Assembly: GCA_039649225.1 (NCBI GenBank)
Contig: JBBWZU010000651.1
Coordinates: 1 to 50,828, forward strand
DNA: 50,828 nt
Direction: 5' to 3'
Source: Hyphomicrobiales bacterium
GTDB taxonomy: Bacteria; Pseudomonadota; Alphaproteobacteria; Rhizobiales; Xanthobacteraceae
Made by a program: the position numbers and the translations under genes
The notes under the pieces: model-generated
Database searches by the model: none
The model's input: the letters and a program-made list of their open reading frames with translations, nothing else
Told to the model about the DNA's origin: nothing
Shown: positions 11,406 to 44,427 of the stretch, one piece after another
How the letters are laid out: every line of letters starts with the position of its first letter
How positions within the stretch are numbered: position 1 is the first letter of the stretch

Positions 11406-13991
11406 TCAGGCGGCTTGTGCGAAGGTATTGCCGTTGATGACGAGCCGGCCATCCCGCACTGTAACCTTGACGGTATCTCCATCCTTGATCGCGCCGGACA
11501 GCAGCATCGTGGCGAGCGGGTTTTGCAACTCGCGCTGAATGACACGCCGCAATGGCCGCGCACCGTACACCGGGTCGTAGCCAGTATTGCCGAGCCAGAT
11601 CTTGGCCTGCTCGTCGATGTCGAGCGTGATCTTGCGATCGGCCAGCAGGCGTTGGAGATGCCGGAGTTGGATATCGACAATCCGCTTCATCTCGTTGCGG
11701 CCGAGCCGGTTGAACAGGATGATCTCGTCAAGGCGATTAAGGAATTCCGGCCGGAACGAGCGGCGTACCACGTCCATCACTTGATCGCGTGCGGCCTCCA
11801 CCGGCTGGCCTTCGAGCAATGCCGCAAGATATTCCGAGCCGAGATTGGAGGTGAGCACGATGATGGTATTGCGGAAATCGACTGTGTGTCCCTGGCCGTC
11901 GGTCAGTCGCCCGTCGTCAAGGACCTGCAACAGGATGTTGAAGACGTCATTGTGTGCTTTCTCGACCTCGTCGAACAGGATCACCTGATAGGGACGTCGC
12001 CGCACCGCTTCGGTCAGCGAGCCGCCTTCCTCGTAGCCGACATAGCCGGGAGGAGCACCGATCAGACGGGCCACGGCGTGCCGTTCCATGTATTCGGACA
12101 TGTCGATGCGCACCATCGCCTGCTCGTCATCGAACAGGAACGTGGCAAGCGCCTTGCACAATTCGGTCTTACCGACGCCGGTCGGTCCAAGGAACAGGAA
12201 CGAGCCGATCGGCCGATTGGGATCCTGTAACCCGGCGCGGGCACGCCGCACTGCGTCGGCGATGACCGCGATGGCGTGGTCCTGGCCGACCACGCGCTCG
12301 CGCAGCTTGTCTTCCATATGAAGCAGCTTTTCGCGTTCGCCTTCCATCATCCGGGCGACCGGAATGCCTGTCCAGCGCGAAACGACCTCGGCGACTTCCT
12401 CGGCGGTGACCTCCTGCTTGAGCATCTGGCCGCTGACCTTCGAGGCATCCGCCAGCCGGCGCTCGAGTTGCGGGATCACCGAATAGAGAAGTTCACCGGC
12501 CCGCTGCAGGTCGCCGCGGCGCTGCGCGATCTCAAGCTCGTTGCGCGACTGATCGAGCTGCGCCTGCAGGCGCTTGACTTCCTCGAGCTTGTCCCTCTCG
12601 GCCTTCCATTTTGCAGTCAGCTCGGCGGAGCGCTGTTCCAGATTTGCCAGTTCCTGCTCGAGGGTCTTAAGACGGTCCTTTGAGGCTTGGTCCGTCTCCT
12701 TTTTCAGCGCCTCGCGCTCGATCTTGAGCTGGATGATGCGGCGGTCGAGCTCGTCGATCTCTTCCGGCTTGGACTCGATCTCCATGCGCAGCCGGCTGGC
12801 GGCCTCATCGATCAGATCGATGGCCTTGTCGGGAAGAAAGCGGTTGGTGATGTAGCGGTTGGACAGCGTCGCGGCGGCGACGATGGCCCCGTCGGTGATG
12901 CGTACGCCATGATGCAGTTCGTATTTTTCCTTCAGGCCGCGCAGGATCGAGATTGTCTCCTCGACCGTCGGTTCGCCGACGAACACGGGTTGGAAGCGGC
13001 GGGCGAGCGCCGCATCTTTCTCGATGTTCTTGCGGAACTCATCCAGCGTGGTCGCGCCGATGCAATGCAGTTCGCCGCGCGCCAGCGCGGGCTTGAGCAT
13101 GTTCGAGGCGTCCATCGCGCCTTCGGCTTTGCCCGCACCGACCAGCGTGTGCAGCTCGTCGATGAACAGGATCACATCACCGGCCGCGGCGACCTCCGAA
13201 AGCACCGCTTACAGCCGCTCCTCGAACTCGCCGCGGTACTTTGCGCCGGCAAGCAGCGCGCCGAGATCGAGCGAGAGCAGCCGGCGATCCTTCAGGGTGT
13301 CGGGCACATCGCCGTTGACGATGCGCTGCGCGAGGCCTTCGACGATCGCGGTCTTGCCGACGCCGGGTTCTCCGATCAGCACCGGGTTGTTCTTGGTGCG
13401 GCGCGAGAGCACCTGCACGGTGCGGCGGATCTCCTCGTCGCGGCCAATGACCGGATCGAGCTTGCCCTGGCGTGCTTCCTCGGTGAAGTCTCGCGTGTAT
13501 TTCTTCAGCGCCTCGTAGTTGCCTTCGGCTGTGGCACTCTCCGCTTTGCGGCCCTGGCGGATGTCGGCGATCGCCTTGTTGAGGTTTTGCGCCGTGACGC
13601 CGGCACGCTTGAGAATGTCCGCAGCCGTTCCCTTGGACAGCGCCAGCGCCAGCAGCATGTATTCGACGGTCACGAAAGCATCGCCGGCCTTCTCGGCCAG
13701 TTGCTCGGCCTGATCGAACAGGCGCGCGGTCTCCGGCGCCATATAGACCTGGCCGGCGCCGCTGCCTTCCACCTTGGGCAGCTTCGCCAGTTCCACATCG
13801 ACCGCTTGGACAACTTGCGCCGCCGTCGCACCGGATGCATCGATCAGATTGGCGGCGAGCCTGTCCTCGTCATCCAGCAGCGCCTTCAACACATGCAGCG
13901 GCGTGAACTGCTGGTGGCCGCTGCGCATTGCAAGCGTCTGCGCCGACTGGATCAGCGTCTTCAAGCGGTCAGTATATTTCTCGATCTGCAT
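11406..13991 (-). pseudogene. clpB: ClpB disaggregase interrupted by one in-frame TAA (ORF pieces 13209-13991 and 11406-13205)
   Basis: The two ORFs are in the same frame and read ...[36 protein letters not shown]. Both AAA+ modules, the coiled-coil M-domain and the N-domain are intact. The stop (13209-13211) lies between Walker A (GEPGVGKT) and Walker B of NBD1, where ClpB proteins have Lys. Confidence 0.85.
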
Positions 13992-22389: not shown

Positions 22390-23205
22390 TCAGTGCGCCA
22401 TCAGAACCGGCACTGTCATTTGCCCCAGAATGTCGCGCGTCATGCCGCCGAGCACGAACTCGCGCAGGCGCGAGTGCCCATACGCACCCATGACGATCAG
22501 GTCGGCGCCAAGATCCGCCGCGCGGGCGAGTACCTCGTCGGCCGGCGTCAGCTCGGTATTGGTGGCGAACTCGGTTTCGGCCTTCAGGCCGCGGCGGTTC
22601 AGGTATTCGGACAGATCCGCACCGGCCGCCTTGCCCTGTTCCGGCTCCGGTTTCACCCAGATGATGGTGGCGGGTCGCCGGCCCGTCATCAGCGGCAATG
22701 CATCATGCAAGGCGCGGCGAGACTCTCGGCTGTCGTTCCAGGCGACGAGCGGTCGATCGCCGGCCTTTGGGTACGATCCGATGTAGGGCACCATCAACAC
22801 GGGGCGGCCGCAAGCCATGATGACGTTCTCGGGCGCCTCAAGGGCCTGCGGCCTCTCCGGATCTCGCTGGCCAAGAACGACGAGATCGGCGGCACGCGAA
22901 CGGCGGATCACGCAAATCTCCGCCGAGTCGCGTTCCAGCAGCCATCGACCGCGCAAGCCGTGCTTGCGCAACACAGCCATGAATTGATCCTCAGCTTTAA
23001 CCGCGGCCGCCTCCAGTGCGACCAATTCGCGCTCCAACTCTATGAGCGTCGGGCCATCCGCCCATGTCGCGACTTCTGGCGGGGGCAACGCAAAGACGGC
23101 GCTCAGATCGGCATCAAGTCGCTTCGCCACGACGGCAGCAAGAGCGACGCGCGCATCGCATTGCGGCGCGGTATCGACATGAACCAGAATGGACTTTATC
23201 GACAT
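22390..23205 (-). CDS. Universal stress protein with tandem Usp domains
   Basis: Two UspA domains. The C-terminal ATP-binding motif is MGAYGHSRLREFVLGGMT. ATG 23205 (MSIKSILVHVD) is preferred. Confidence 0.85.
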   Translation of the reverse strand: MSIKSILVHVDTAPQCDARVALAAVVAKRLDADLSAVFALPPPEVATWADGPTLIELERELVALEAAAVKAEDQFMAVLRKHGLRGRWLLERDSAEICVIRRSRAADLVVLGQRDPERPQALEAPENVIMACGRPVLMVPYIGSYPKAGDRPLVAWNDSRESRRALHDALPLMTGRRPATIIWVKPEPEQGKAAGADLSEYLNRRGLKAETEFATNTELTPADEVLARAADLGADLIVMGAYGHSRLREFVLGGMTRDILGQMTVPVLMAH

Positions 23206-23229
23206 GATAATTCGCTTTCGCGCCACGCC

Positions 23230-27913: not shown

Positions 27914-28666
27914 ATGAACATAAGGAATGCTTTGACGACCACAGAAAACCCGGCTGGCCAAGCGAATGCCAAAACACCCTCACCCCAATCTCATTTGAAA
28001 AACCTCGATTCCCTCGCCACGGTCGTCCCGTGTCGCCGCGGGCAGGAAATCTGCGGCCAAGGCCGCCCCGCCGAGACATGGTATTGCGTCCTGTCGGGCG
28101 CGGCGCGGCGTTACGTCATCAGGCTCGATGGCCGGCGCCAGATCGTCGATCTGTTGCTGCCCGGGGACTGTTTCGGCTTTTCCGCCGGCGGCGACTATGA
28201 TTTCGCGGTCGAAGCGGTGACGGACGGAACAGTCGTCGCAGGTTACCCGCGGCGGCGCGCCGAGATGCTGGCGGATTCCGATCCGCGCGTCTCACGGGAG
28301 ATCCGCCAGGCTGCCTTTGAAGCGCTCTCGCGGCTGCAATCCCAGCTTCTTATTGTCGGCCGGATCACCGCGCTGGAGAAGGTTGGCTCGTTTATTCTCG
28401 AAATGGCAGCGCGCCTGTCGCGCGCGAGCAGCAGAAGGGTCGCGTTGCCGGTCTCGCGCTACGACATCGCGGATTATCTTGCAGTCTCCGTCGAGACCGT
28501 CAGCCGCTCACTCACCGATCTCAAGCATCGCGGCGTCATCCGCATGTCGGGGACGCGCACACTCGAGATCATGGATCGCGATGCGCTCGAGGATGGAGAG
28601 TCGCTCGCTCATTTGGCGCCGGCCCAAAACGCGGGGCGTTATCATGACACAGCCCAGCTACGCTAA
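27914..28666 (+). CDS. FixK-like Crp/Fnr family transcriptional regulator
   Basis: ATG 27914 has GAGAGG upstream. The HTH YDIADYLAVSVETVSRSLTDLKHRGVI carries the E..SR recognition motif of the FNR/FixK class. There is no N-terminal Fe-S cysteine cluster. Confidence 0.8.
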   Translation: MNIRNALTTTENPAGQANAKTPSPQSHLKNLDSLATVVPCRRGQEICGQGRPAETWYCVLSGAARRYVIRLDGRRQIVDLLLPGDCFGFSAGGDYDFAVEAVTDGTVVAGYPRRRAEMLADSDPRVSREIRQAAFEALSRLQSQLLIVGRITALEKVGSFILEMAARLSRASSRRVALPVSRYDIADYLAVSVETVSRSLTDLKHRGVIRMSGTRTLEIMDRDALEDGESLAHLAPAQNAGRYHDTAQLR

Positions 28667-29479: not shown

Positions 29480-30106
29480 TCAGCTTTGCGAACTCTCGGG
29501 GGCAAACCGTGCCATGACGGCGAGGCGCACCGCTTCGCCCAATTGTCTGACTCCGAGGCGGTCCATCATGCGTGCCCGATGGACCTCGATGGTCCGCACG
29601 CTCAAGCCGAGGTCAAAGGCAATGATCTTGTTAGACCGACCGGCCACCAGGGCATCGAGAACTTCGCGCTCGCGCGGGCTGAGCGCGGCGATCCGCTGCG
29701 CCGCCTCCTCGGCCTCCGGAAGGCGGTCGGACAGCAGTGTCCGCGTGAACGCATCTTCGATGGCGGCGAAGAGAGTCGTATCGTCGAAAGGTTTCTCGAT
29801 GAAATCGACGGCTCCAGCCTTCATTGCCTGCACGGCGCTCTGAACGTCGCCCTGGCCAGTTATGATGATCACCGGGAGGGCGATGCCCAGATCATTCATG
29901 CGACGTTGTAACTCAAGCCCGTCCATATCGGGAATTCTGATATCCAGCAGTACGCAACCGGGCGCCAGGTCCGGCGCGACATTCAGGAACGCCGCCGGTG
30001 TTTCGAACGAGACGGCGCGAAAGCCGGCCGCATCAAGCAGTTGTTCGAGAGAGCGGCGAACGGCCGCGTCGTCATCCAGAACGTAGACCGTGCGCTCAAT
30101 CGGCAC
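29480..30106 (-). CDS. FixJ/NarL-type response regulator
   Basis: Receiver domain (VLDDD...LLDIRIPDMDG...K) plus LuxR-type HTH (SPREREVLDALVAGRSNKIIAFDLGLSVRTIEVHR). GTG start at 30106 overlaps the kinase stop. Confidence 0.85.
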   Translation of the reverse strand: MPIERTVYVLDDDAAVRRSLEQLLDAAGFRAVSFETPAAFLNVAPDLAPGCVLLDIRIPDMDGLELQRRMNDLGIALPVIIITGQGDVQSAVQAMKAGAVDFIEKPFDDTTLFAAIEDAFTRTLLSDRLPEAEEAAQRIAALSPREREVLDALVAGRSNKIIAFDLGLSVRTIEVHRARMMDRLGVRQLGEAVRLAVMARFAPESSQS

Positions 30107-31823
30107 GGTTCACCTCATCGCTCCAAGCGGTCAGGGTGAAACGGAAAATCGCGCCGCCATCCGGATTGCCTTCCACGTGGATTTTTCCGCCATGCGCTTC
30201 GATGATCGAGCGGGATATGGAAAGTCCAAGCCCCATTCCCTTGCGCTTGCCGGTTACGAATGGCTCGAACAGGTGCTCAGCGATATGCTTTTCGAGCCCC
30301 GCTCCGCTATCCGCGATGGAGATTTCAACAATCTCCGCGTCGAGCAACGCCGTGGTCACTATGATCTCGCGGCGCGGCGTGCCCACCATCGCCTCCAGGG
30401 CGTTGTGAATCACGTTGACGATCACCTGCTGAACCTGGATTCGATTGGCGAACGCACTGACGGCTCCCGGTTCGAATTGGAATTGCAGGTCGACGCCAAG
30501 TGAATTCGAGCCCGTCAGCGCAAGCGCACACGCTTCCTCGATCAGCGGTTTTAGTTTCTCAATGCGCTTCTCGGTTTTGCCGCGGGTGATGAATTCACGC
30601 AGCCGTCGGATCACCTGTCCGCCGCGAAGCGCCTGGCCTGCAGCCTCGTTCAGTATCTCCGGTACTTTGGCCATCTTGTCATTTGCGCCGCTCGCCAGAA
30701 GGCGGCGTGCCGCGTGCACCGAATTGGCGATCGCGGCCAGAGGCTGATTCAGCTCGTGGGCGAGCGCACCTGCCAAATGTCCGGCGGCGGTGAGACGCGT
30801 TGCGTGCCACAATTCCAGCTGTGCCTCCTGCAGCCGGGCATCGGTACGCGCGCTCTCTGCCATTTCGGTAACCAGTCTGCCATTGGCGCGTGCGAGCTCG
30901 ATTGTTCGTTCGGATACCCGTTGCTCAAGCGACTGGTTGAGGCGACGCAACTCGGCCTCTGCGGCCTTTTGACTTGTCAAATCGCGGGCGACGGTCGCCA
31001 TGTTCATCGGCTTCCCCGTACGTGGTTGGTCGATGCGAAACCAATCGACGAGAAATGGTATCGCCGCGCCGGTGTTGAAATGACGAAAGCCGACTTCGCC
31101 GACCCAGCGTCCGGATTGCAGTACGACGGGCAGAATCTCCTCGCGCGCCCGAAGACGGTCATCGGGGGCGATAAAATCGAAAATATTCAACCGGGCAGCC
31201 GCCTCGATGGAATCAAGGCCGAGGAGCGTCAGTCCCGTCGGATTGAGGTATTGGAGATGCCCTTCGATGCCAGCGACCCCGACGAAATCGGAGGAACGTT
31301 CGATCAGCGTGGTGAAGCGCCGCGCTTCCACCTCGACGCGCCAGCGCCGCAGCGCGATAGTCGCGTCGTTTGCGCCGATTCCGAGCAGCAGACGTTGTGC
31401 CTCGGATGGAAAATCATGCTGGCTCGCCCCACCAACGACTATCGCATCGCCGCCGAGCCCGATTGGGGCGACCGCAATGCGCATCGTTCCAGCACCGACC
31501 GGATTGGGAATCGACAAAGTTTGCTCGGTTGCGGGCCGCGGGAGTGCTTCGTGCAGAGCTGCCCGAATGGTCTCAGGCGCGTTCTTCTTCAATCCGTTTC
31601 CCACATGGGTGATTTCAATGTTCGGTTCGGCATGCGAACCAGGAAGTGCGACATAGATAAAATCTACCCCGAGCATGGTAATCAGCGCCGCTGCCACGCT
31701 TTCGGCGATCTGCGGTGGATCGAAATCTTTCCACATGGCCGGTAGCGCCGAAAGCGTCATCAGATCGCGGATATAACGCCGAAGCTCCTGTGGGTCGGAA
31801 AAAAACTGTTCTACCGATGGCAT
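30096..31823 (-). CDS. Cytoplasmic sensor histidine kinase (N-terminal sensory region, PAS, HisKA, HATPase; FixL-family architecture)
   Basis: H-box AHELNQPL, ATPase N/G boxes (VIHNALEAM, DSGAG, GMGLGLSISRSI), a PAS-like segment, and no TM helices. Confidence 0.85.
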   Translation of the reverse strand: MPSVEQFFSDPQELRRYIRDLMTLSALPAMWKDFDPPQIAESVAAALITMLGVDFIYVALPGSHAEPNIEITHVGNGLKKNAPETIRAALHEALPRPATEQTLSIPNPVGAGTMRIAVAPIGLGGDAIVVGGASQHDFPSEAQRLLLGIGANDATIALRRWRVEVEARRFTTLIERSSDFVGVAGIEGHLQYLNPTGLTLLGLDSIEAAARLNIFDFIAPDDRLRAREEILPVVLQSGRWVGEVGFRHFNTGAAIPFLVDWFRIDQPRTGKPMNMATVARDLTSQKAAEAELRRLNQSLEQRVSERTIELARANGRLVTEMAESARTDARLQEAQLELWHATRLTAAGHLAGALAHELNQPLAAIANSVHAARRLLASGANDKMAKVPEILNEAAGQALRGGQVIRRLREFITRGKTEKRIEKLKPLIEEACALALTGSNSLGVDLQFQFEPGAVSAFANRIQVQQVIVNVIHNALEAMVGTPRREIIVTTALLDAEIVEISIADSGAGLEKHIAEHLFEPFVTGKRKGMGLGLSISRSIIEAHGGKIHVEGNPDGGAIFRFTLTAWSDEVNRAD

Positions 31824-35088: not shown

Positions 35089-38007
35089 CTAAGCCGCGAT
35101 GATCTGGCAAAGCGTCGCTTTTGGTTCCTGCATGCCGGTTGCCGGGTCATAGCCGTAGGTGGTGATCGTGTTGTTGCTCTCGCCGAGCACGATCGGGTCC
35201 GCGCCCTTGGGATATTTCCAGCGCTGATCGACGGCCTGGAACCAGCCGGCGAAATGATAGGGCATCCAGACGACACCCTTGCCCATGCGCTCGGTCACCT
35301 GCGCTTTCATGCGGGTGTATCGGCCGGGCTCCATTTCGGCGCCCCACACGTGAACCCAGCCGCCGTCCTTGATGCCGCGTTCGCCGGCGTCGGCGGGATT
35401 GATCTCGACGAACATGTCCTGCTGCAGTTCGGCAAGCCATCTGTTCGCGCGCGTCTCCTCGCCGCCGCCTTCGTACTCGACGAGACGACCGGAGGTAAGA
35501 ATAAGCGGAAACTGTTTCGCGATACCCTTTTCGACGCCTGTTTTCTGCACGTCGAAACCGACATTCGGCACCCGGAACTGGATGGCGTTCGGCAAAGTCG
35601 GATATTTGGCGACGAGGTCTGGGCGCGGTGTGTAGATCGGTTCGCGATGCACCGGGATCGGGTCCGGCAGATTCCACGCGTTCGCGCGTGCCTTGCCGTT
35701 GCCGTAGTGAATGACGCCATGGTGGAGGCACACGCGCTGGATACCGCCCGACAGGTCGGTCGCCCATGACACGCTGTCGGGCTGGTTGCCGCCGACGCGC
35801 TGGATGACCTCGCGCTCGGCGTCGGAGAGATCCTTATCCCAGCCAAGTTTCTTGAGCACACCGAGCGTGAACTCGGGATATCCGTCCTTGATTTCCGAGC
35901 CGAGTGAATACGAACCTTCGGCGAGCAGGGTCTCGCCGTTGCGCTCCACGCCGAAGCGGGCGCGGAACGTGCCGCCGCCATCCTTGACGTGCAGGTTGGT
36001 GTTGTAGAGCGTGTGCGTGCCGGGATGGCGAAGCTCGGGCGTTCCCCAGCACGGCCATGGCAGGCCGTAATAGTCGCCTTTGCACGGCCCGTCTGTTGCC
36101 CGCAAGCTGATGATATCGAAATCTTTCTGATTGTCGCGGTGAAGCTTGAGCCGCTCGGGCGACTGGCCAGTGTATCCGGTCGACCATCCGCCGCGATTGA
36201 TCTCGCGTAAAATGTCCTCGGCCAGCGGGACGTTGTCCTCGACCTTGATGTTCTTGAACATCCGGTCGGCAAAGCCGAGCTTCATCGCCAGCCGGTACAT
36301 GATTTCAAAATCGTCCTTGGCTTCGAAAATCGGAGGGACGACCCGCTCGTACCATTGCAGCGAGCGGTTCGAAGCGGTGCGGCAGCCTTTGGCCTCGAAC
36401 TGCGTGCCGCACGGCAGCAGGTACGTGCCGTTCTTGCGCTCGGAGACAACCGCCCAGGCGGTCGGAACTGTGTCGACCACGACCAGCAGGTCGATGGTCT
36501 CGAGCGCCTTGGCGGCCTGCGGCATGCGCGTGATGGTGTTGACGCCATGGCCGAACACCATCATGGCGCGCAGGTTGTCTTTCTGCGCAACGTGCTCCTT
36601 CGGCAGCGTCGCGGCATCGAACCAGCGGGTTGACGGGATGCCCGGCGTCTCCATCATCGTCTTGGTTTCGAAGCGCGACGTTATCCAGTCGTAGTCGACC
36701 TCCCAGACACGGCACCAATGTTTCCAGGCGCTGTCGGTCAGGCCGTAATAGAGCGGCAGCGTCACCACATCGAGGCCGAGATCGGTCGCGCCCTGCACGT
36801 TGCAGTGTCCGCGGAAAATATTGGCGCCGTTGCCGAAGTTTCCAACATTGCCGGTGGCGAGCAGCAGGATGCAGCTTGCGCGCACGTTCGCGGTACCGAC
36901 CGTGTACTGGGTCTGGCCCATCGCCCAGATCAGCGTTGCCGGCTTGTCATGCGCGAACATCTCGGCGACGCGCCGCACCTGCAGCTCGGAGAGGCCGGTG
37001 ACGCGCTGCACTTCGTCCGGCGTCCATTTCTCGACCTCCTTGCGCACATCGTCCATGCCGTAAACGCGCTGCTGGATGAACTCCTTGTCTTCCCAGCCGT
37101 TCTTGAAGATGTGCCAGAGCATTCCGTAGATCGTCGGAATGTGCGTCCCAGGGCGCACGCGCATGTAGGCGGTCGCATGCGCGGCGGTGCGCGTCATGCG
37201 CGGATCGATGACAATGAAATTGGCCCGATTGAGCTCCTTGCCCTCCAGCAGATGCTGCATCGCCACCGGATGCGCCTCGGCCGGATTGCCGCCCATGATC
37301 ACCTGGGTCTTCGCGTTGCGGATGTCGTTGTAGCTGTTGGTCATCGCGCCGTAGCCCCAGGTATTGGCGACGCCGGTGACGGTGGTCGAATGGCAGATAC
37401 GCGCCTGATGATCGGAATTGTTCGTGCCCCAGAAGGCGGCGAGCTTGCGGTTCAGATAGGCGCCTTCGTTGGAGAACTTCGCCGAGCCGAGCCAGTAGAC
37501 CGAATCCGGTCCGGACTTTTCCCGAATCTCCATAAGTTTGTTGCCGATCTCGTCGATCGCCATGTCCCAGGTGACGCGCTTCCACAACCCGTCGACCAGT
37601 TTCATCGGATAGCGCAGGCGGCGGTCGCCATGCACAAGCTCGCGCACCGATGCGCCCTTGGCGCAATGCGAGCCGCGATTGATCGGCGAGTCGAAGGCCG
37701 GTTCCTGGCCGATCCAGACGCCATTCGACACTTCAGCGATGACCGTGCAACCGACCGAGCAATGCGTGCAGATCGCCTTGACACTGGTGACCGTGGCGCC
37801 CGGAGATGGCGGCGGGCCGGCCTTCGCCTTGCGCACCATAGCGATCGGAAGAGAGCCTAACGCCGCAAGGCCACCTGCGGTCAAGCCGGAGCGGCGCAGG
37901 AACGCTCGCCGATCAAGGCCGCTATTCGCGATGTCGTTTGCGTTGCCCGCTGTCGTGCTGGCCGGCGGCGCGCGGACCACGCTCTGGTCCCGGCGTTTGA
38001 TCAACAC
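35089..38007 (-). CDS. Formate dehydrogenase-N-type catalytic (alpha) subunit, Tat-exported, cysteine variant
   Basis: Tat motif LDRRAFLRRSG and N-terminal cluster CTHCSVGC. ARICHSTTV has Cys where E. coli FdnG has selenocysteine, and there is no in-frame TGA. The start is uncertain: GTG 38007 (MLIKRR...) is preferred over GTG 38112. Confidence 0.85.
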   Translation of the reverse strand: MLIKRRDQSVVRAPPASTTAGNANDIANSGLDRRAFLRRSGLTAGGLAALGSLPIAMVRKAKAGPPPSPGATVTSVKAICTHCSVGCTVIAEVSNGVWIGQEPAFDSPINRGSHCAKGASVRELVHGDRRLRYPMKLVDGLWKRVTWDMAIDEIGNKLMEIREKSGPDSVYWLGSAKFSNEGAYLNRKLAAFWGTNNSDHQARICHSTTVTGVANTWGYGAMTNSYNDIRNAKTQVIMGGNPAEAHPVAMQHLLEGKELNRANFIVIDPRMTRTAAHATAYMRVRPGTHIPTIYGMLWHIFKNGWEDKEFIQQRVYGMDDVRKEVEKWTPDEVQRVTGLSELQVRRVAEMFAHDKPATLIWAMGQTQYTVGTANVRASCILLLATGNVGNFGNGANIFRGHCNVQGATDLGLDVVTLPLYYGLTDSAWKHWCRVWEVDYDWITSRFETKTMMETPGIPSTRWFDAATLPKEHVAQKDNLRAMMVFGHGVNTITRMPQAAKALETIDLLVVVDTVPTAWAVVSERKNGTYLLPCGTQFEAKGCRTASNRSLQWYERVVPPIFEAKDDFEIMYRLAMKLGFADRMFKNIKVEDNVPLAEDILREINRGGWSTGYTGQSPERLKLHRDNQKDFDIISLRATDGPCKGDYYGLPWPCWGTPELRHPGTHTLYNTNLHVKDGGGTFRARFGVERNGETLLAEGSYSLGSEIKDGYPEFTLGVLKKLGWDKDLSDAEREVIQRVGGNQPDSVSWATDLSGGIQRVCLHHGVIHYGNGKARANAWNLPDPIPVHREPIYTPRPDLVAKYPTLPNAIQFRVPNVGFDVQKTGVEKGIAKQFPLILTSGRLVEYEGGGEETRANRWLAELQQDMFVEINPADAGERGIKDGGWVHVWGAEMEPGRYTRMKAQVTERMGKGVVWMPYHFAGWFQAVDQRWKYPKGADPIVLGESNNTITTYGYDPATGMQEPKATLCQIIAA

Positions 38008-38281
38008 GGCGGCTCTCGCAGGCGGCAGACCGCGTAATAGCTGTTGACGTGCTCGCTGTCCCGGTAGCCGGCCGTAGAGCACCCGTTCTCGGGTTCGGCG
38101 CCGACGCCGCACGTTGCCGGCGCGCCGCCGCCCGCGGCGCTGGTCATCCCACCCGCCAGAACCGTGAGGGCCGCGCGGCGCGTAACAACGGTTCTGTATT
38201 GCCTCAAGGCATCCACGACGCGGCCCTCGATCGGCGGACGCACTCCGCAGGTTTTCCTACGACCGCTGCGCATTTGCCGCG

Positions 38282-38295
38282 TTGATGGGCGTCAA
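38282..38295. promoter_or_regulatory. FixK/FNR-type box TTGA-N6-TCAA (ttgatgggcgtcaa)
   Basis: Perfect half-sites in the divergent region between the FDH operon and the SRPBCC gene. This is the first of two boxes 34 bp apart. Confidence 0.6.
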
Positions 38296-38315
38296 CATTG
38301 GAGGGCGCGCGCGCC

Positions 38316-38329
38316 TTGACATCCGTCAA
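38316..38329. promoter_or_regulatory. FixK/FNR-type box TTGA-N6-TCAA (ttgacatccgtcaa)
   Basis: Perfect half-sites, centred about 98 bp upstream of GTG 38420. Confidence 0.6.
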
Positions 38330-38419
38330 GGCGGTGGCGGTTGGGCGGACCTATCTGGCAAGACGGCGATGCACCCTCCGTCGGGGCAATGCGCCTTCGA
38401 ATGGCTCGAGGAGAGGTCC

Positions 38420-38899
38420 GTGCAGATCAGTGTATCGAGGAACAGCGCCGCGCGTGCGTCGGACGCTTTCGCGGTCGTGGCCGACATCGCGAGCTGGCCC
38501 GGGATAATCACCTCGATCGAGGACGTCGCGCTACTCGATCCTGGTCCTCTTCGCGCCGGCACGCGATTGCGCATTCGACGCATCGTGTTTGGTCACGCGA
38601 CCGCTGAGGAGCTGGAGATCGTCGAGATCGAACGGCCGCGTCGTCTGCGGCTTGCCGGCCAAAGCCGTGACCTTCACTACGAGCGGGATCACATCATCGA
38701 CGCGATGCAGGGTGGTTCGCGGTTAACGCTGATCTTCCGCCCCAGGCCGAGCGATCAAGTCAGCCGCGCGGCGCTGCCGTTCATGACGCCCTTCATGGAG
38801 GTAAACCTGCGCGATGAGCTGGAGCAGGACCTGGTCGATCTGGCGGCGGCCATCGCGGCAAAATCTTCCGAGACATTCAGCAACGTCAGACGCGTTTGA
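38420..38899 (+). CDS. SRPBCC (START/polyketide-cyclase-like) family protein
   Basis: GTG 38420 is preceded by GAGGAGAGG. VQISVSRNSAARASDAFAVVADIASWP... is a typical SRPBCC N-terminus. Confidence 0.65.
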   Translation: MQISVSRNSAARASDAFAVVADIASWPGIITSIEDVALLDPGPLRAGTRLRIRRIVFGHATAEELEIVEIERPRRLRLAGQSRDLHYERDHIIDAMQGGSRLTLIFRPRPSDQVSRAALPFMTPFMEVNLRDELEQDLVDLAAAIAAKSSETFSNVRRV

Positions 38900-39112
38900 T
38901 CATTGGCAGGATATAGGATTGAAAATCCTACTAGAAGAGATATCATAATATGCAATCAATGGTTCGGTTTGGCAGAACGAACCCATTCGTACCGAAGCAA
39001 GTCCCGGTGGGATTGATGTTGATTCAATCTTGCTGGGACACGCTTTCCTCCTCGGGCTCCCATTGCGTTGCGGCGCTCGTTGCATGTTTCGCGCGCAGGG
39101 TCGCCGTACACC

Positions 39113-39850
39113 TCATTGACGCGACAAGGGCTGGGCCGGCTCCGCGCCCGCGCGTGGGGGGGCGAACGGCTGCATCGCGAGCGCAAGCAGCACAGCCTTG
39201 GCGGCGGGCTCGGCTGACGCAGGATTCTGCCCGGTGATCAGGTTGCCATCCGTCTCCGAATGCGGAAACCAGTTGGGCGCCCGGGTGAAGCGGCCGTCGT
39301 TCTCGCGCAGCATGTCCTCGACCAGGAACGGGACAACATCGGCCAGGCCGGCCGCAGCTTCCTCGGTGTTGGTGAAGCTGGTCACGATCTTGTCCTTGAC
39401 GAGCGGCAGGTCGCCTCCGCCACGTGCATGCCGAAAGGCCGCTGGGCCGTGACATACGGCGGCGACCGGTCGCCCGAGGCGATACATCCTCTCAATCAGC
39501 TCGACCGACACAGGATCCTCGGCGAGGTCCCACAGCGGCCCATGTCCGCCCGGATAGAATACGGCGTCGAACTCTTCATTGGCGATATCGCGCAGCTTCA
39601 CCGAGGCGGCAAGCCAGGCCTGCGTCTTCTTGTCGGCATAGAGCCGATGCGTCGCGGCCGTCTGAGCCTCCGGCCGTTCGCTCCGAGGATCGATCGGCGG
39701 GTGCCCGCCGCGCGGCGATGCGAGCGTGATATCGAGCCCCGCATCGCCGAAGGCATAGTAGGGAGCGGCGAACTCCTCCAGCCACACGCCGGTCTTGTGT
39801 CCGGTGTTGCCGAGCTTGTTGTGCGATGTCATCACCATCAAGATCTTCAT
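39113..39850 (-). CDS. Type 1 glutamine amidotransferase-like protein (DJ-1/PfpI superfamily, Hsp31-like)
   Basis: MKILMVMTSH..., FYPGGHGPLWDL, AAVCHGPAA nucleophile elbow. Confidence 0.8.
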   Translation of the reverse strand: MKILMVMTSHNKLGNTGHKTGVWLEEFAAPYYAFGDAGLDITLASPRGGHPPIDPRSERPEAQTAATHRLYADKKTQAWLAASVKLRDIANEEFDAVFYPGGHGPLWDLAEDPVSVELIERMYRLGRPVAAVCHGPAAFRHARGGGDLPLVKDKIVTSFTNTEEAAAGLADVVPFLVEDMLRENDGRFTRAPNWFPHSETDGNLITGQNPASAEPAAKAVLLALAMQPFAPPRAGAEPAQPLSRQ

Positions 39851-39883
39851 GGAGGCTTCACCTCGTGTTTCGCGTATTCCGCG

Positions 39884-40705
39884 CTAGTGCGCCACGATCA
39901 GCGGTATCGGCGCCTGATGCATCAGTTGATAGGTGACGCCGCCCAGCAGCCATTCGCGCAGGCGTGAATGGCCATAGCCGCCTATCACGATGAGATCGGC
40001 GCTACGCTCCTGCGCCTCCGCGATCAGCGTCGCCCCGATGCCGCTGCCACGCGGCCTGACATCGTGCAACTTGGCTCCGACGCCATGGTGCAGGAGGTGG
40101 TCCATGAGATCGTTGCCGTTGATCGGAGAGTACAGGCTGTCCTGCACGACAATGACATCCACCATCTCGGCCTTGCGCAGATAGGGCATCGCTTCCGCCA
40201 CGGCGCGCGTCGCCTCGCGCGTACCGTTCCAGGCAAGCGCGATGCGATCGAATGCCGCGGGCGCGGGCCTGTCGATCGGCGCGAGGAACAGGTGCCGGCC
40301 CGACCCGAACAGTACGCTCTCGATCACTTGGTCCGCCTCGTCCGAAGCGCCGTTCGGACGCAGTCCGACGAACACATCGGCGCCACGCGCCTCGCGCGCC
40401 GCAACATCGCCGCCCGATCCGGTGGCGACATCGATGCGTCGCAGCTCCACGGGTGACTGCAAGGTCGCCAGGCGGTGTCTGAGCGCTGCGTCGATCCGGT
40501 TGCCGTTCTCGACCGCTGCCTGCATCACCTGCGCGGCATGCGCCGCGCCTATTCCGTCCCATTCCGCGGGAACGAGCGGGGGCAGCATGTTGAGAAAGAG
40601 CGCCGTGATGTGGCTCTCGAAATATTCCGCGATGTCCGCGACGGCGGCCAGACGCACCTCGTCGACGGGCGTTCCGTCGAGCGACACCATTACGTCCTTG
40701 ATCAT
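39884..40705 (-). CDS. Universal stress protein with tandem Usp domains
   Basis: ATG 40705 has GGAGG upstream. Two UspA domains. The C-terminal motif is IGGYGHSRLREWLLGGVT. Confidence 0.85.
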   Translation of the reverse strand: MIKDVMVSLDGTPVDEVRLAAVADIAEYFESHITALFLNMLPPLVPAEWDGIGAAHAAQVMQAAVENGNRIDAALRHRLATLQSPVELRRIDVATGSGGDVAAREARGADVFVGLRPNGASDEADQVIESVLFGSGRHLFLAPIDRPAPAAFDRIALAWNGTREATRAVAEAMPYLRKAEMVDVIVVQDSLYSPINGNDLMDHLLHHGVGAKLHDVRPRGSGIGATLIAEAQERSADLIVIGGYGHSRLREWLLGGVTYQLMHQAPIPLIVAH

Positions 40706-40755
40706 GGATACCTCCAAGATGCAGCCGGAGCATGCCCCACGGCACAGATTTGTCG

Positions 40756-40769
40756 TTGACGACGATCAA
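40756..40769. promoter_or_regulatory. FixK/FNR-type box TTGA-N6-TCAA (ttgacgacgatcaa)
   Basis: Perfect half-sites, centred about 58 bp upstream of USP ATG 40705. The 14-mer is identical to the box at 47667. Confidence 0.65.
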
Positions 40770-40798
40770 ATTTGCAGCGGCGCAACTCAGATAACAAC

Positions 40799-40812
40799 TT
40801 GATGCCCGTCAA
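40799..40812. promoter_or_regulatory. FixK/FNR-type box TTGA-N6-TCAA (ttgatgcccgtcaa)
   Basis: Perfect half-sites, centred about 72 bp upstream of ATG 40877. Confidence 0.65.
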
Positions 40813-40876
40813 AGCGGCCTCGTCGTACAACGGCGTAGTTCGTCAACGTTGTCCCACGCCGACGCTTGAGGAGCAG

Positions 40877-42073
40877 ATGCTTCACATCGACATCCCGACA
40901 TTGACCGAGTTTAAGGCGCTGGCCGCGATGAGAGGCGATGCCTGCGTGTCACTCTATCTGCCGGCGTCGCCGTTCCCTCATCAGGCGCGCGCCAATCGCG
41001 TTGCGTTCAAGGACATCGCCAAAACAGCCCTTGCCCAATTGCACGAGGCCGGCTTCGACAAGCGCCGGCTCGCGGCCTTGGAGCAGCGGTTCGATCATTT
41101 GGCCGGCGCTGACGAAGACAATGTCCAGGACCAGGATCATATCCGCAAGCTGCAGAACAGGAAGCCAAGCGAGGTGGACGCGTTCTGGATCAACCAGACA
41201 AATGGTCTGGGAGTGCTGGCAACGCCCGAGACACTGCGCACGTTCCGCCTGCCGTTCGCTCCAAAACCGCTCGCCGAGGTCGCAAACCGCTTTCATCTGA
41301 CGCCGCTCATTCGCGTCATGACCTCGCCGCACGACGTGTTCGTGCTGGCTTTATCGGAGGAAAGTGTACGGCTGGCGCATGTGTTCGCGAACCTGGCCGC
41401 GATCGAAATCAAGGTTCCGAATTTGCCGCATACGGCCGCGGAGGCGACGCGGCGCCCGTCGATCCATGTGCGCGCGCCGCGCGGCCACCTGCAAAATCTC
41501 GAAGGCGAGAAAGTGCTGCTGCAGAAATACGCGCGCCAGGTGAATCAGGCCGTCTGCGCCGCGCTTGCCGGGCAGGCGACGCCATTGGTGCTGGCGGCCG
41601 CCCAGCCGATCGCCTCGATCTTCCGTTCCGTGAGCTGCTATCCGCGTCTGCTCGACGAGGGGATACAGGACGCCGGCCACATGAGCATTGCGCAGCTCGC
41701 CGATGCGGCGCTTCCGATCCTTAATCGGCTTCATGGCCGTGAGTTGAAGGCGATCATCGCGCGCTACGATGAACTCAAGCCCCGCCGCGCCACCACGGAT
41801 ATCTCCTATGCGTCGCACGCCGTAACTGCAGGGGCTCTCGAAGAGCTGTTGGTCGATCTCGATGCGGTGGTCCCCGGCTTGGTGAGCGACTACGATGGCA
41901 GCGTCACCTATGCGACGTCCGACGACGCGGAAACCTATAGCGTCGTGGATGAGATCGCGCGCCGCGCAGTTTGCTCCGGCGCGCACGTGCTCGGCGCCCG
42001 GCGTGATGAACTGCCCGACCGAGCCTCGCTGATTGCAATCCTTCGCTATCAGTTCGGGACAATCGCGGGCTAG
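40877..42073 (+). CDS. eRF1/Pelota-like protein (bacterial baeRF-type family, tentative)
   Basis: ATG 40877 has GAGGAG upstream; 398 aa. The C-terminal part ...AVTAGALEELLVDLDAVVPG...VDEIARRAVCSGAHVLGARRDELPDRASLIAILRY mirrors the eRF1/Pelota domain-3 ending (..GAV..LLV.....GA.V..V......GI.AILRY). No GGQ motif was seen. Confidence 0.55.
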   Translation: MLHIDIPTLTEFKALAAMRGDACVSLYLPASPFPHQARANRVAFKDIAKTALAQLHEAGFDKRRLAALEQRFDHLAGADEDNVQDQDHIRKLQNRKPSEVDAFWINQTNGLGVLATPETLRTFRLPFAPKPLAEVANRFHLTPLIRVMTSPHDVFVLALSEESVRLAHVFANLAAIEIKVPNLPHTAAEATRRPSIHVRAPRGHLQNLEGEKVLLQKYARQVNQAVCAALAGQATPLVLAAAQPIASIFRSVSCYPRLLDEGIQDAGHMSIAQLADAALPILNRLHGRELKAIIARYDELKPRRATTDISYASHAVTAGALEELLVDLDAVVPGLVSDYDGSVTYATSDDAETYSVVDEIARRAVCSGAHVLGARRDELPDRASLIAILRYQFGTIAG

Positions 42074-42122
42074 CCGGCGACCACGCTGCACATATCAAGC
42101 CGAGCCGGATTCCTGAGTGCTC

Positions 42123-42136
42123 TTGACGCCCATCAA
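42123..42136. promoter_or_regulatory. FixK/FNR-type box TTGA-N6-TCAA (ttgacgcccatcaa)
   Basis: Perfect half-sites, centred about 111 bp upstream of ATG 42240. It overlaps an 11-nt direct repeat, tgacgcccatc, at 42124-42134 and 42137-42147. Confidence 0.55.
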
Positions 42137-42239
42137 TGACGCCCATCGGCGCGATATGGTTGATTTTGCGCGACGGCCGAGTACGCGCGAGCCGATGCCA
42201 CGTGGACCTTCGCGCCGCTTTCAAAACCAGGAGATCGCC

Positions 42240-42635
42240 ATGCGACAACAACTTCGCGCCGGCGCGACCGCGTTTGCGCTTCTCGCCAGCATCAGCCTCG
42301 CCTCCGCGCAGCGTGGGCAGGCCGCCGATCAGCCCCTGACCCAGCAGCAGCAGCAATCCGTCAACCAAGGGCTGGCGAACCAGCCGACCGACTCAGCGCC
42401 GGCAGGATATCAAGGCCAGGTCGGCAGCAAGATGCCGGACTCGATGTCGGCGCATCCGATGCCGAACAGCGTTGCGTCGGATGTGCCGGAAACCAAGAAC
42501 CTCCTGTTCGTCAAGCTGCCTGACCGCGTGTTGCTGATCGATCCGGACAGCAAGGCGATCGCCGAGATCCTGCTTGCCGGCGACACGACCGGCAGCACGT
42601 CCGACCAGCAGAACCAGCAAAATCAGCAGAAGTAG
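42240..42635 (+). CDS. Secreted Gln-rich protein with one DUF1236-like C-terminal module
   Basis: AGGAGA lies upstream of ATG 42240. Signal peptide MRQQLRAGATAFALLASISLASA. LLFVKLPDRVLLIDPDSKAIAEIL resembles the repeated modules of 46229-47596. Confidence 0.65.
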   Translation: MRQQLRAGATAFALLASISLASAQRGQAADQPLTQQQQQSVNQGLANQPTDSAPAGYQGQVGSKMPDSMSAHPMPNSVASDVPETKNLLFVKLPDRVLLIDPDSKAIAEILLAGDTTGSTSDQQNQQNQQK

Positions 42636-42654
42636 GCGCCCGTTGGCGCTGCTA

Positions 42655-42679
42655 CGGCGCGCCGATCCACGGCGCGCCG
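42655..42679 (+). terminator. GC-only 9-bp hairpin (cggcgcgcc-gatccac-ggcgcgccg) after 42240-42635
   Basis: Perfect stem with a 7-nt loop, preceded by a smaller hairpin at 42636-42649. No U-tract follows, so terminator function is uncertain. Confidence 0.3.
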
Positions 42680-42700
42680 CTAGACCGACGAGTAAAGATC

Positions 42701-43090
42701 ATGACCGTCAAGCTCAAGCGCAGCGGCTTCGAGCAGGCCCAGAAACTGATCCGCGAGCGGTGCTGCGTGCTCGATGTACGCGACGACTGGAGCGATCATC
42801 GGCCCGCGCGCACGGCCAAAAACCGCTTCATCGAGGAATACGGCTGGGCCGCGTTCGGCAAATGGCACCTCGGCGAGGATGACGAGATCGCCGAGCACAA
42901 CAAGAGCCGCTACAAGCTTCCGTACGGCGACTTCAAGAATGTACACCGTTGCGCGGTGCTCTCCGCCGAGTCGCGTGCCGGCCGGTACAAATATGCCGAA
43001 ATCGAGCTCGCAGCCGCGCATCTGCACGGCATGCTGGATGAACTGATGCCGGAGTCCGACAAGGAGCGACGGCATGTTTCGACACCTTGA
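42701..43090 (+). CDS. Hypothetical protein
   Basis: 129-aa ORF with protein-like composition (…YKLPYGDFKNVHRCAVLSAESRAGRYKYAEIELAAAHLHGML…). No family recognised. Confidence 0.5.
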   Translation: MTVKLKRSGFEQAQKLIRERCCVLDVRDDWSDHRPARTAKNRFIEEYGWAAFGKWHLGEDDEIAEHNKSRYKLPYGDFKNVHRCAVLSAESRAGRYKYAEIELAAAHLHGMLDELMPESDKERRHVSTP

Positions 43091-43403
43091 GGCGGCGCTT
43101 CTCTCTCTCATCACGCTGGCGGCGGTAGATCGCGTGCCCGAATTCAATATCGAACCGATTTGCCGCGAGGTTGCCGGCCGCGCCGACGCGCCGCGCTACA
43201 AGGAGACCTGTCTGCGCAAGGAGCGCGAAGCACAGGAGCAACTTAGGCAGAAGTGGGCGACGTTTCGGGCTTCCGATCGATCGTATTGCACGCAGCTTGC
43301 GTCGCTCGGCGGCGTGCCGAGCTATGTCGAGCTGCTCACCTGTCTCGACGTTGCGCAAAGCGTGGGGCGTGCGAGAGGCGAAAACGCGCGCCAGAACTTC
43401 TGA
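43074..43403 (+). CDS. Small secreted 4-Cys protein, unknown function
   Basis: 109 aa with a hydrophobic N-terminus and four Cys. Overlaps the upstream ORF by 17 nt. Confidence 0.5.
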   Translation: MFRHLEAALLSLITLAAVDRVPEFNIEPICREVAGRADAPRYKETCLRKEREAQEQLRQKWATFRASDRSYCTQLASLGGVPSYVELLTCLDVAQSVGRARGENARQNF

Positions 43404-43553
43404 ACCGCCACACCGGCGCGGATGAAAATTGATCGCGGCCAGAGCGACTATCCTGCCTCCGTTCAACATTCCCGCGGTGAGTGACGGGCGCATGCCGCTC
43501 AATTGTTGCAAGTAGCTCGCCCCTTCCATCGTTCTCAACCAAAGCCAATCGTG

Positions 43554-43567
43554 TTGACAGCGGTCAA
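43554..43567. promoter_or_regulatory. FixK/FNR-type box TTGA-N6-TCAA (ttgacagcggtcaa)
   Basis: Perfect half-sites, centred about 64 bp upstream of ATG 43624. Confidence 0.65.
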
Positions 43568-43623
43568 TGCCGCGCACGGGGGTTGCGGCGATAAGTGTAA
43601 AATCCCTAGAAGGAGATATTCCA

Positions 43624-43896
43624 ATGTGGAAGACCCTCACCCTGGCTGGAATCGTACTGACAATCTCCCTGAGCAATGGCTCAGCCGCCGTCGTCAGCCC
43701 GCAAGCTGCGGCGGTGATGGCGGACATTCCCAAAATGGCTGAATCGGTTGCATGGGTTTGCGGTCCTCACCGTTGCGCCTGGAGGCCGGGATGGCACGGC
43801 TTTGTGCCGCGCTGGGCGATTTGGGGTCCGCCCCGACTGCCTGGCTGCTTCTATGAGCGGCGTCGGTTCCGTTGGGTTGAAATTTGCCCCATTTGA
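43624..43896 (+). CDS. Small secreted Cys/Trp/Arg-rich protein, unknown function
   Basis: AAGGAG lies upstream of ATG 43624. Signal peptide MWKTLTLAGIVLTISLSNGSAA. The mature part is WVCGPHRCAWRPGWHGFVPRWAIWGPPRLPGCFYERRRFRWVEICPI. Confidence 0.6.
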   Translation: MWKTLTLAGIVLTISLSNGSAAVVSPQAAAVMADIPKMAESVAWVCGPHRCAWRPGWHGFVPRWAIWGPPRLPGCFYERRRFRWVEICPI

Positions 43897-43989
43897 TCGT
43901 CGCATCGGCTTGTTCGGCCAGCTTTGCTGTTCATGCAATTCTGATCGACTATGCTTGCAACTCCGATCGACTGAGTCGGGGCTAGCGTG

Positions 43990-44427
43990 ATGCGGCCTGG
44001 TCTTTGCGCTTTCGCTGCCGCGGCAGGCTTTCTCGGGGCAGCGCTCTATATCAGCCTTGTCGAGCAGCCGGCGCGGCTTGCCTTGAGCAGCCGTGCGATG
44101 ATTCAGGAATGGATCCCGAGCAATCGGCGCGGCACGCTGATGTTGTCAGTCCTTGCGGTGGTGTCTGCATTGTTCGCTCAGCTTCAGTTTGCGACGAGCG
44201 GTGACGTGCGCTGGACCATTGGCGGACTCATAATTCTGGCGAGCTGGCCATACGCCTACTTCGTGATGGTCCCGGTCAACATCCGGCTCTATGCAATTGC
44301 GCCGGGGCGCGCCGTTTCGGCGGCCCGAAGGCTGATGCGCGACTGGAGTCTGCTGGAATGGGGCCAGGTGTTGATCGGCCTTGCGGCCTGCGGTGTGTTC
44401 GCGTGGGCGCTGGCGTTGCCAGCGTGA
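43990..44427 (+). CDS. DUF1772 (anthrone-oxygenase-like) membrane protein
   Basis: Four TM helices with ...LVEQPARL...WPYAYFVMVPVNIRL..., typical of DUF1772. The start is ATG 43990 or GTG 43987. Confidence 0.6.
   Translation: MRPGLCAFAAAAGFLGAALYISLVEQPARLALSSRAMIQEWIPSNRRGTLMLSVLAVVSALFAQLQFATSGDVRWTIGGLIILASWPYAYFVMVPVNIRLYAIAPGRAVSAARRLMRDWSLLEWGQVLIGLAACGVFAWALALPA

Follow-up and report, generated by a model that had tools for sequence, protein, structure and literature searches.

The window analysed here, a stretch of 50,828 nucleotides (nt) of contig JBBWZU010000651.1 from a Hyphomicrobiales bacterium, contains a gene (40877-42073) for a 398-residue protein of baeRF_family11, a Pfam family of bacterial homologues of the archaeo-eukaryotic release factor aeRF1. 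A gene for a universal stress protein (USP) lies divergent from it, and two FixK/FNR-type boxes are located between the two genes (Table 1). An earlier note on this DNA had placed the open reading frame (ORF) here, quoted its C-terminal segment, reported no GGQ motif, and described two boxes 43 bp apart at 40756 and 40799, one for each of two genes separated by 172 bp. All of these features were recovered: the product ends ...TAGALEELLVDLDAVVPGL...SGAHVLGARRDELPDRASLIAILRYQFGTIAG and lacks GGQ as well as NIKS, both boxes are perfect TTGA-N6-TCAA sites, and the start-to-start distance is 172 bp when the USP is read from ATG 40705.

Comparison with orthologues places the true start of the baeRF gene at ATG 40877, because the 19 orthologues that were aligned (66-88% identity) all share the N-terminus MLHIDIPTL at an ATG, and because box 40799 falls within the extension of the longest ORF, which begins at TTG 40772. 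For the same reasons, the identical protein called as 423 residues in a metagenome is over-extended. The USP gene likely starts at ATG 40705 and not at TTG 40717, since GGAGG (40713-40717) precedes the former with a spacing of N6.

The USP was described in the earlier note as a tandem protein, which holds in part. It aligns over its full length with a second USP of the window that has two Usp stretches (22390-23226; 30% identity, E 3e-27), and its C-terminal Usp domain is clear, but the N-terminal half alone has no Pfam match and is degenerate.

Table 1. Coordinates of the baeRF gene, its landmarks and associated features in the window
Feature	Position	Strand	Evidence or remark
Gene for Balon-family (baeRF_family11) aeRF1-like protein, 398 residues	40877-42073	+	PF18855, family profile, AlphaFold2 model, Foldseek
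N domain (approximate)	40877-41290	+	model
M domain (approximate)	41291-41782	+	model
C domain (approximate)	41783-42070	+	model
Shine-Dalgarno-like GAGGAG before ATG 40877	40868-40873	+	direct sequence reading
N-domain loop PASPFPHQ, residues 29-36	40961-40984	+	both solved Balons added by MAFFT to the alignment of 86 sequences
22-residue insertion DEDNVQDQDHIRKLQNRKPSEV, residues 79-100	41111-41176	+	alignment; pLDDT 75-83 in model
M-domain loop ATRRPSIHVRAPRGHLQNLEGEK, residues 190-212, at position of aeRF1 GGQ loop and Balon lasso loop	41444-41512	+	alignment, model
C-domain beta-hairpin insertion PGLVSDYDGSVTY, residues 333-345	41873-41911	+	model strands 333-336 and 343-345
C-terminal AILRY strand	42035-42049	+	aligned with Balon ...LVTRY and Msmeg1130 ...AVLRW
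USP of two-domain size, 273 residues	39884-40705	-	Pfam Usp, E 9e-12
FixK/FNR-type box TTGATGCCCGTCAA	40799-40812		centre 71.5 nt upstream of ATG 40877; predicted class-II start near 40847
FixK/FNR-type box TTGACGACGATCAA	40756-40769		centre 57.5 nt upstream of USP ATG 40705; predicted start near 40721 (-)
Twelve further perfect boxes	5070, 7088, 27671, 32262, 33357, 38282, 38316, 42123, 43554, 45466, 47667, 50382
FixK-like CRP/FNR regulator	27914-28666	+	Pfam HTH_Crp_2, cNMP_binding, Crp; FixK-type box 27671 upstream
Second CRP/FNR protein	5368-6141		under equivalog cutoff
FixJ-like response regulator	29480-30106	-	FixJ, 237 bits (cutoff 255)
Histidine kinase, 575 residues, overlapping the FixJ-like gene	30096-31823	-	FixL, 311 bits, residues 317-566 only

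Family, fold and residue-level features

The protein matches PF18855 (baeRF_family11) with 133.3 bits (E 1e-38, residues 151-286; gathering threshold 27.2 bits), compared with 121 bits for baeRF family 8 and 66 bits for family 3. Its only real NCBIfam match is to NF052287, the AOC03_06830 family ribosome hibernation factor (77.5 bits, E 1.3e-21, residues 107-391). This is an equivalog model built on the P. urativorans protein Balon, with a curated cutoff of 330 bits, and the window protein is therefore a homologue, not an equivalog, of that Balon. The family comprises 6784 representative clusters at E<=1e-3, and a profile was prepared from an alignment of 86 diverse members (A2), to which all counts out of 86 given below refer. 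This profile matches Balon (8rd8_B) with E 3.7e-39 (profile 10-371 of 373 on residues 3-369 of 369) and Msmeg1130, the M. smegmatis Balon (8v9j_z), over the full length with E 7.5e-14, whereas Pelota is matched with E 0.14. The family profile was needed for a strong match, a single-sequence search of the PDB finding Balon at E 0.0085 only.

An AlphaFold2 model of the protein (predicted local distance difference test (pLDDT) 93.5, predicted template modelling score (pTM) 0.88) was compared to the PDB using Foldseek. Five ribosome complexes of Balon and Msmeg1130 ranked on top (E 6e-22 to 9e-19, template modelling score (TM) 0.64-0.71), followed by aRF1 (3e-14), Rv2629 (1.5e-13), eRF1 (~1e-11) and Pelota (~1e-7). 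The earlier note had assigned the product to the eRF1/Pelota (baeRF-type) fold and proposed a Pfam hidden Markov model search and an AlphaFold model with Foldseek as checks. These returned baeRF_family11 and, first, the Balon structures, then aRF1/eRF1 and then Pelota; the fold is thus borne out, but the protein is closer to Balon and aeRF1 than to Pelota. With aeRF1/eRF1 it shares the superfamily and the domain order (Foldseek E 1e-10 to 3e-14), but GGQ and NIKS are absent and the whole-protein TM is only ~0.4. The host, a bacterium, terminates translation with its own RF1 and RF2.

The baeRF clade was defined by Burroughs and Aravind, who predicted its members to be non-catalytic A-site blockers linked to hibernation (PMC6514570). 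Ribosome hibernation was shown for Balon, Msmeg1130 and Rv2629 by Helena-Bueno et al., 2024, who count all bacterial aeRF1 homologues (~20% of species) as the Balon family (PMC10901736). The view in the earlier note that such proteins are essentially uncharacterised experimentally is outdated since that work, and the role with hibernating ribosomes that it suggested has been shown in two other baeRF families, family 3 (Balon) and family 10 (Msmeg1130, the Rv2629 counterpart) (PMC10901736). These families were assigned by rebuilding the two solved Balon sequences from HMMER alignments and scanning them against Pfam, with P. urativorans Balon falling in baeRF_family3 and Msmeg1130 in family 10. 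Judged by profile scores, family 11 lies closer than family 10 to family 3. Since the verified Balons belong to two families, the A-site hibernation mode spans the clade that contains family 11. The reading we favour, with a probability of about 0.65, is that the window gene encodes a FixK/FNR-activated, Balon-type A-site hibernation factor that is co-induced with the USP and a surrounding stress island.

The contact residues of the solved Balons provide further points of comparison. In the N domain, S31-P32 aligns with the only His-Pro of the Balon N-domain loop, H27-P28, which is taken to be the decoding-centre HP motif of a paper that gives no residue numbers, and Msmeg1130 has D-P there. 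Pro occupies column 32 in 69/86 members, and column 31 holds Thr in 34 and Ser in 29. In the C domain, G334 (85/86) and G341 (84/86) of the hairpin align with the hairpin region of Balon and Msmeg1130. On this alignment, residues 333-345 correspond to the EF-Tu-binding hairpin region of Balon, which is its EF-Tu contact and is highly conserved (PMC10901736). Arg390 of the C-terminal AILRY strand is present in all 86 family members. The 22-residue insertion of the N domain is confined to the window clade, being absent from the sampled members of the wider family and from Balon.

An A-site binder with this fold might also rescue or recycle ribosomes in the manner of Pelota/Dom34: it would split or clear stalled ribosomes, or help to wake hibernating ones, with no parking or protection. 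This is unlikely. The window protein shares the superfamily fold with Pelota and aeRF1, and with Pelota/Dom34 the M and C fold and the lack of a catalytic glutamine, but the Pelota N domain is unmatched in most Foldseek matches, which mostly cover 300-320 aligned columns (TM mostly 0.21-0.30, maximum 0.41 for 3j15_A) compared with ~400 columns for Balon. The Balon-typical EF-Tu hairpin is conserved, and although the clade-specific insertion could reach the mRNA channel and non-catalytic rescue is one of the options proposed for baeRF by Burroughs and Aravind (PMC6514570), both baeRF families tested so far inhibit translation and show no rescue (PMC10901736).

The M-domain loop is basic (5 K/R vs 2 D/E), lacks GGQ and is flexible in the model (pLDDT 73-84); it is nearly invariant among close orthologues and variable across the wider family. 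One of its residues, Q206 (HLQ206N), could be regarded as GGQ-like, in which case the protein would be a stop-codon-independent peptidyl-tRNA hydrolase, releasing peptides from stress-stalled ribosomes. Q206 is invariant in 20 close orthologues and lies two residues before a model helix starting at 208, similar to the pre-helix place that the GGQ glutamine occupies in eRF1 structures, and MAFFT sets it opposite a Gln of Msmeg1130. However, GGQ function needs both glycines, no Gly-Gly precedes Q206, and the residue is found in only 34/86 of the wider family. While family 10 was noted by Burroughs and Aravind as retaining a conserved Gln (PMC6514570), the family-10 proteins with this Gln are still translation inhibitors and are described as being without GGQ (PMC10901736). 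We consider the hydrolase function very unlikely, and a catalytic glutamine was rejected as the leading interpretation on account of the 34/86 count and the missing Gly-Gly. Four distant family members do have a GGQ near the M loop, arising from a common E-G-Q helix cap, where the window protein has E-G-E.

A further, rather doubtful idea is that the basic loop of the clade (RRPSxHVRAPRxxLQNLEGEK, with the clade-invariant Gln) and the 22-residue insertion together confer a different activity on the ribosome, for instance release of peptides, sensing in the mRNA channel, or a parking of translating ribosomes that is gated by oxygen, so that FixLJ-FixK would directly control translational capacity. 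If so, such control of translation would operate in Bradyrhizobium-type bacteria in microoxic soil or nodules, and leaderless mRNAs might be the route in some orthologues.

FixK-type boxes, orthologous loci and the stress island

The window contains 14 perfect TTGA-N6-TCAA sites compared with 0.50 expected, and none of 100 shuffles reached 14. For the two boxes between the baeRF and USP genes, the first base lies 64-78 nt upstream of the respective start codons. Related loci, 19 in number, were drawn from genomes and metagenomes; in 15 of them the start codon is preceded by a perfect box at a centre distance of 41.5-87.5 nt, and one more has a box with a single mismatch. The half-sites are invariant except for one base in locus L012, and the flanks are variable (alignment A3, 12 sequences; 11 loci aligned). 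With a box at promoter distance that is kept in its orthologues, the baeRF gene qualifies as a putative member of a FixK/FNR-type regulon. The window boxes lie at distances that are typical for FixK2 targets with experimental support: FixK2-dependent genes of B. diazoefficiens have boxes at similar distances, for example the USP gene bll4644 at -72 (PMC9104804, Table 2), and those induced under microoxia include USPs, Hsp20 and DnaJ (PMC6515984; PMC9104804, Table 2). The window resembles this regulon in box type, box distance and the types of genes (USPs, Hsp20, DnaJ, chaperones), but its local kinase has no recognisable FixL sensor domain.

In four loci (L001 2521-2571, L015 7952-8003, L016 767-818 and L018 1056-1107) the centre of the box is only 41.5-42.5 nt upstream of the ATG, which would put a class-II transcription start at the start codon and therefore predicts a leaderless mRNA for this hibernation-factor homologue. 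A well-conserved intergenic stretch, ..TTCGCATGGGCGCTGG..GCCGCCGTGA, is present right before the box (~90-40 nt upstream of it; A3 columns ~20-60) in the Bradyrhizobium loci (L002-L012 and L017) and missing from the window locus. In the window, a weak inverted repeat at 40812-40867, whose 21-nt arms are 76% complementary, extends across the predicted baeRF promoter and 5' leader and is probably due to chance. Repeats between the baeRF and USP genes consist of the two boxes and weak pairs only; an Rfam scan of 38000-44000 found no match, and a scan for sigma-70 promoters and terminators gave nothing useful. Downstream, the box at 42123-42136 is located 50 nt past the baeRF stop codon, inside a mechanically called ORF (42117-42635, +) whose real start is probably ATG 42240. 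The resulting 131-residue Gln-rich product has an N terminus resembling a signal peptide and matches DUF1236 weakly, and a related segment occurs in L019 and L020.

A candidate activator of the boxes is the FixK-like regulator at 27914-28666, for which the best NCBIfam match is FixK (139 bits, cutoff 300) and which has the recognition helix ...VETVSRSL... (E--SR). It adjoins the FixJ-like and FixL-like genes, and all three products score under their equivalog cutoffs. It is possible, though improbable, that the hibernation factor is as proposed while another CRP/FNR paralogue acts at the boxes, or the boxes respond to another signal (nitric oxide, redox, energy state or stationary phase); in that case it would be no hypoxia gene in the FixL sense. 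Many FNR/FixK/NnrR-type proteins recognise TTGA-N6-TCAA, the window encodes two CRP/FNR regulators, both under equivalog cutoffs, and no haem-PAS domain is detectable in the kinase; on the other hand, a FixK-like protein with an E--SR helix beside a FixJ/FixL-like pair is the classical arrangement, and genes of B. diazoefficiens whose boxes are placed in this way, USPs and chaperones among them, are microoxia-induced and FixK2-dependent (PMC6515984, PMC9104804).

The twelve further boxes are spread over an island of stress and redox genes, which includes DnaK, DnaJ, a split ClpB, Hsp20, BON, Lon, two USPs, PRC-barrel proteins, two DJ-1/PfpI proteins, HdeD/DUF308, a formate-dehydrogenase-like (FdnGHI-like) operon, thioredoxin 2, DUF1931, DUF5335, PsiE, an SDH-type protease with a rhomboid protein, an SRPBCC protein with two boxes and an MMPL transporter. 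The earlier note spoke of a hypoxia and stress island. Hypoxia is inferred, the FixL match of the local kinase being confined to the kinase core and not extending to a haem-PAS sensor. The ClpB gene (11406-13991, -) is broken by an in-frame TAA at 13209-13211, with both ORFs in the same frame. The TAA sits exactly at a conserved Lys position of ClpB, and it may reflect a nonsense mutation or a pseudogene, or else an error of sequencing.

The orthologous loci show a similar setting. In the Bradyrhizobium loci, the orthologue adjoins a co-directional USP gene with its own box ~75 nt upstream, and lies 1-6 kb from orthologues of the window BON and DnaK (71-83% identity) and from Hsp20 at lower identity. 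A USP gene is directly upstream in ten loci, of which nine come from Bradyrhizobium-type genomes and one, L017, from a soil metagenome. A strict pairing with the USP was rejected, because the USPs of these ten loci are co-directional and ~30% identical to the window USP, and the other loci have none. In L019 (3156-4823) and L020 (3300-4775), the gene of a 74%-identical orthologue directly abuts an upstream SRPBCC (Polyketide_cyc2) gene, its first base following the last base of that gene. The SRPBCC gene in turn has a one-mismatch box 70.5 nt upstream; its counterpart in the window, also of the SRPBCC type, lies ~2 kb from the baeRF gene (38282-38899).

Among the 14 loci returned by the genome scan there was none from B. 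diazoefficiens or B. japonicum, and a USDA110 orthologue was not established. In USDA110, bll4412, a 'translational machinery protein', is FixK2-dependent with a box at -38 and is 20.7-fold down in a fixK2 mutant, and FixK2-dependent 'host attachment proteins' are among bll4645 and bll5315, one of which adjoins the USP gene bll4644 (PMC9104804). These three genes may be baeRF-related and are candidates only, as their family could not be established.

Members of the family are also found on plasmids. That of Nitrobacter hamburgensis plasmid 1 (L021) has the order cydAB-USP-PRC-(gene)-Dps-AcnA-sulfite oxidase, and that of the Enterobacter hormaechei IncF plasmid NZ_CP058188.1 (L022; 86951-88036, 36% identity) has IS1 elements on both sides, with a cold-shock gene and iraM nearby. 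The plasmid-borne homologues, the IS1-flanked copy included, are all annotated as hypothetical, and one might imagine that the fold alone was inherited and now serves a non-ribosomal function, for example in phage defence. We consider this extremely improbable, as PADLOC found no defence-system match, all three domains and the ribosome and EF-Tu contact surfaces are conserved, and the genes around it encode stress proteins and no defence functions.

Proposed role and relation to known hibernation factors

For the window protein as a Balon-type hibernation factor, the following sequence of events is proposed, inferred from the homology, fold, motif content and box conservation observed here. 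A FixK-class CRP/FNR activator would bind box 40799, centred ~41.5 nt upstream of the predicted transcription start, and the divergent USP gene would be driven likewise from box 40756. Both genes would come on together with the box-rich stress island (DnaK, DnaJ, Hsp20, BON, Lon, USPs, DJ-1), probably in response to low oxygen. Once made, the protein would enter the A site of the ribosome but would not read the mRNA there; the (S/T)-Pro loop of its N domain would touch the decoding centre and the beta-hairpin of its C domain would hold EF-Tu(GDP). Ribosomes would thus be parked and protected until conditions improve.

Several observations weigh against this proposal. The protein is no more than 13-18% identical to the solved Balons, the NF052287 score is far under the equivalog cutoff, and the experimental record covers baeRF families 3 and 10 and no member of baeRF_family11. 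In the alignment, Ser/Thr-Pro stands in place of the HP motif, whose His is not kept; Msmeg1130, a verified ribosome binder, likewise lacks this His (D-P). The lasso loop and bL27 trap of Balon are not recognisable by sequence in the M domain, and the 22-residue insertion or the nearly invariant basic M loop could alter the binding mode. The gene most often found beside Balon, that for RaiA/HPF, was not seen in the window. With regard to regulation, Pfam finds HisKA and HATPase_c only in kinase 30096-31823, and the first 316 residues of this protein have no match to a PAS, haem or other model; given the lack of a recognisable haem-PAS sensor, oxygen is a presumed signal only. No box is present at more distant family members (the Nitrobacter hamburgensis plasmid, Pseudaminobacter and Hyphomicrobium), so that the FixK link belongs to the Bradyrhizobium/Xanthobacteraceae clade.

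In comparison with P. urativorans Balon (AOC03_06830; PDB 8RD8/8RDV/8RDW), the window protein has full-length homology, the same three domains and overall shape, the same absence of GGQ and NIKS, a Pro-containing N loop, the C-domain hairpin, the ..RY strand and a stress-gene neighbourhood. It differs in belonging to subfamily 11 and not 3, with 17% identity, in having Ser-Pro for His-Pro, a different and more basic M loop and the 22-residue insertion, and in having no adjacent RaiA. Control by a FixK box is predicted here; the ribosomes on which Balon was detected came from cells in cold shock or in stationary phase. Msmeg1130 and Rv2629 (PDB 8V9J/8V9K/8V9L) are also full-length homologues (E 7.5e-14; Foldseek 5e-20), of another subfamily and with 13-18% identity. 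Their hypoxia-linked expression parallels the position of the window gene beside a USP in a FixK-box island, but the regulator is DosR there and would be of the CRP/FNR type here. Rv2629 is a member of the DosR regulon, with USP genes nearby. Both Rv2629 and Msmeg1130 are hypoxia-induced, and the reported types of Balon-gene neighbourhood, which the settings seen here match, include Hsp20, DnaK/DnaJ, HdeD and hypoxia factors (PMC10901736). No link of Balon with FixK or rhizobia was found in the literature searched, and two supplement files of the Balon paper do not mention Bradyrhizobium (PMC10901736).

Since hibernation has already been shown for Balon, Msmeg1130 and Rv2629, the gene adds to a known family of factors and is not an unexplored system. 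A-site hibernation by the Balon family is known; what would be new is a further subfamily with a plausible new regulatory input, with no new class of system. The gene offers a tractable case for the A-site/EF-Tu mode in a third baeRF subfamily. If the proposed role is correct, the low-oxygen programme that FixK/FNR runs in Bradyrhizobium-like soil bacteria would include Balon-type hibernation, in parallel to the hypoxia-induced Rv2629 of M. tuberculosis but by way of an unrelated regulator, and the physiology of rhizobia under microoxia and in symbiosis would thereby extend to translation.

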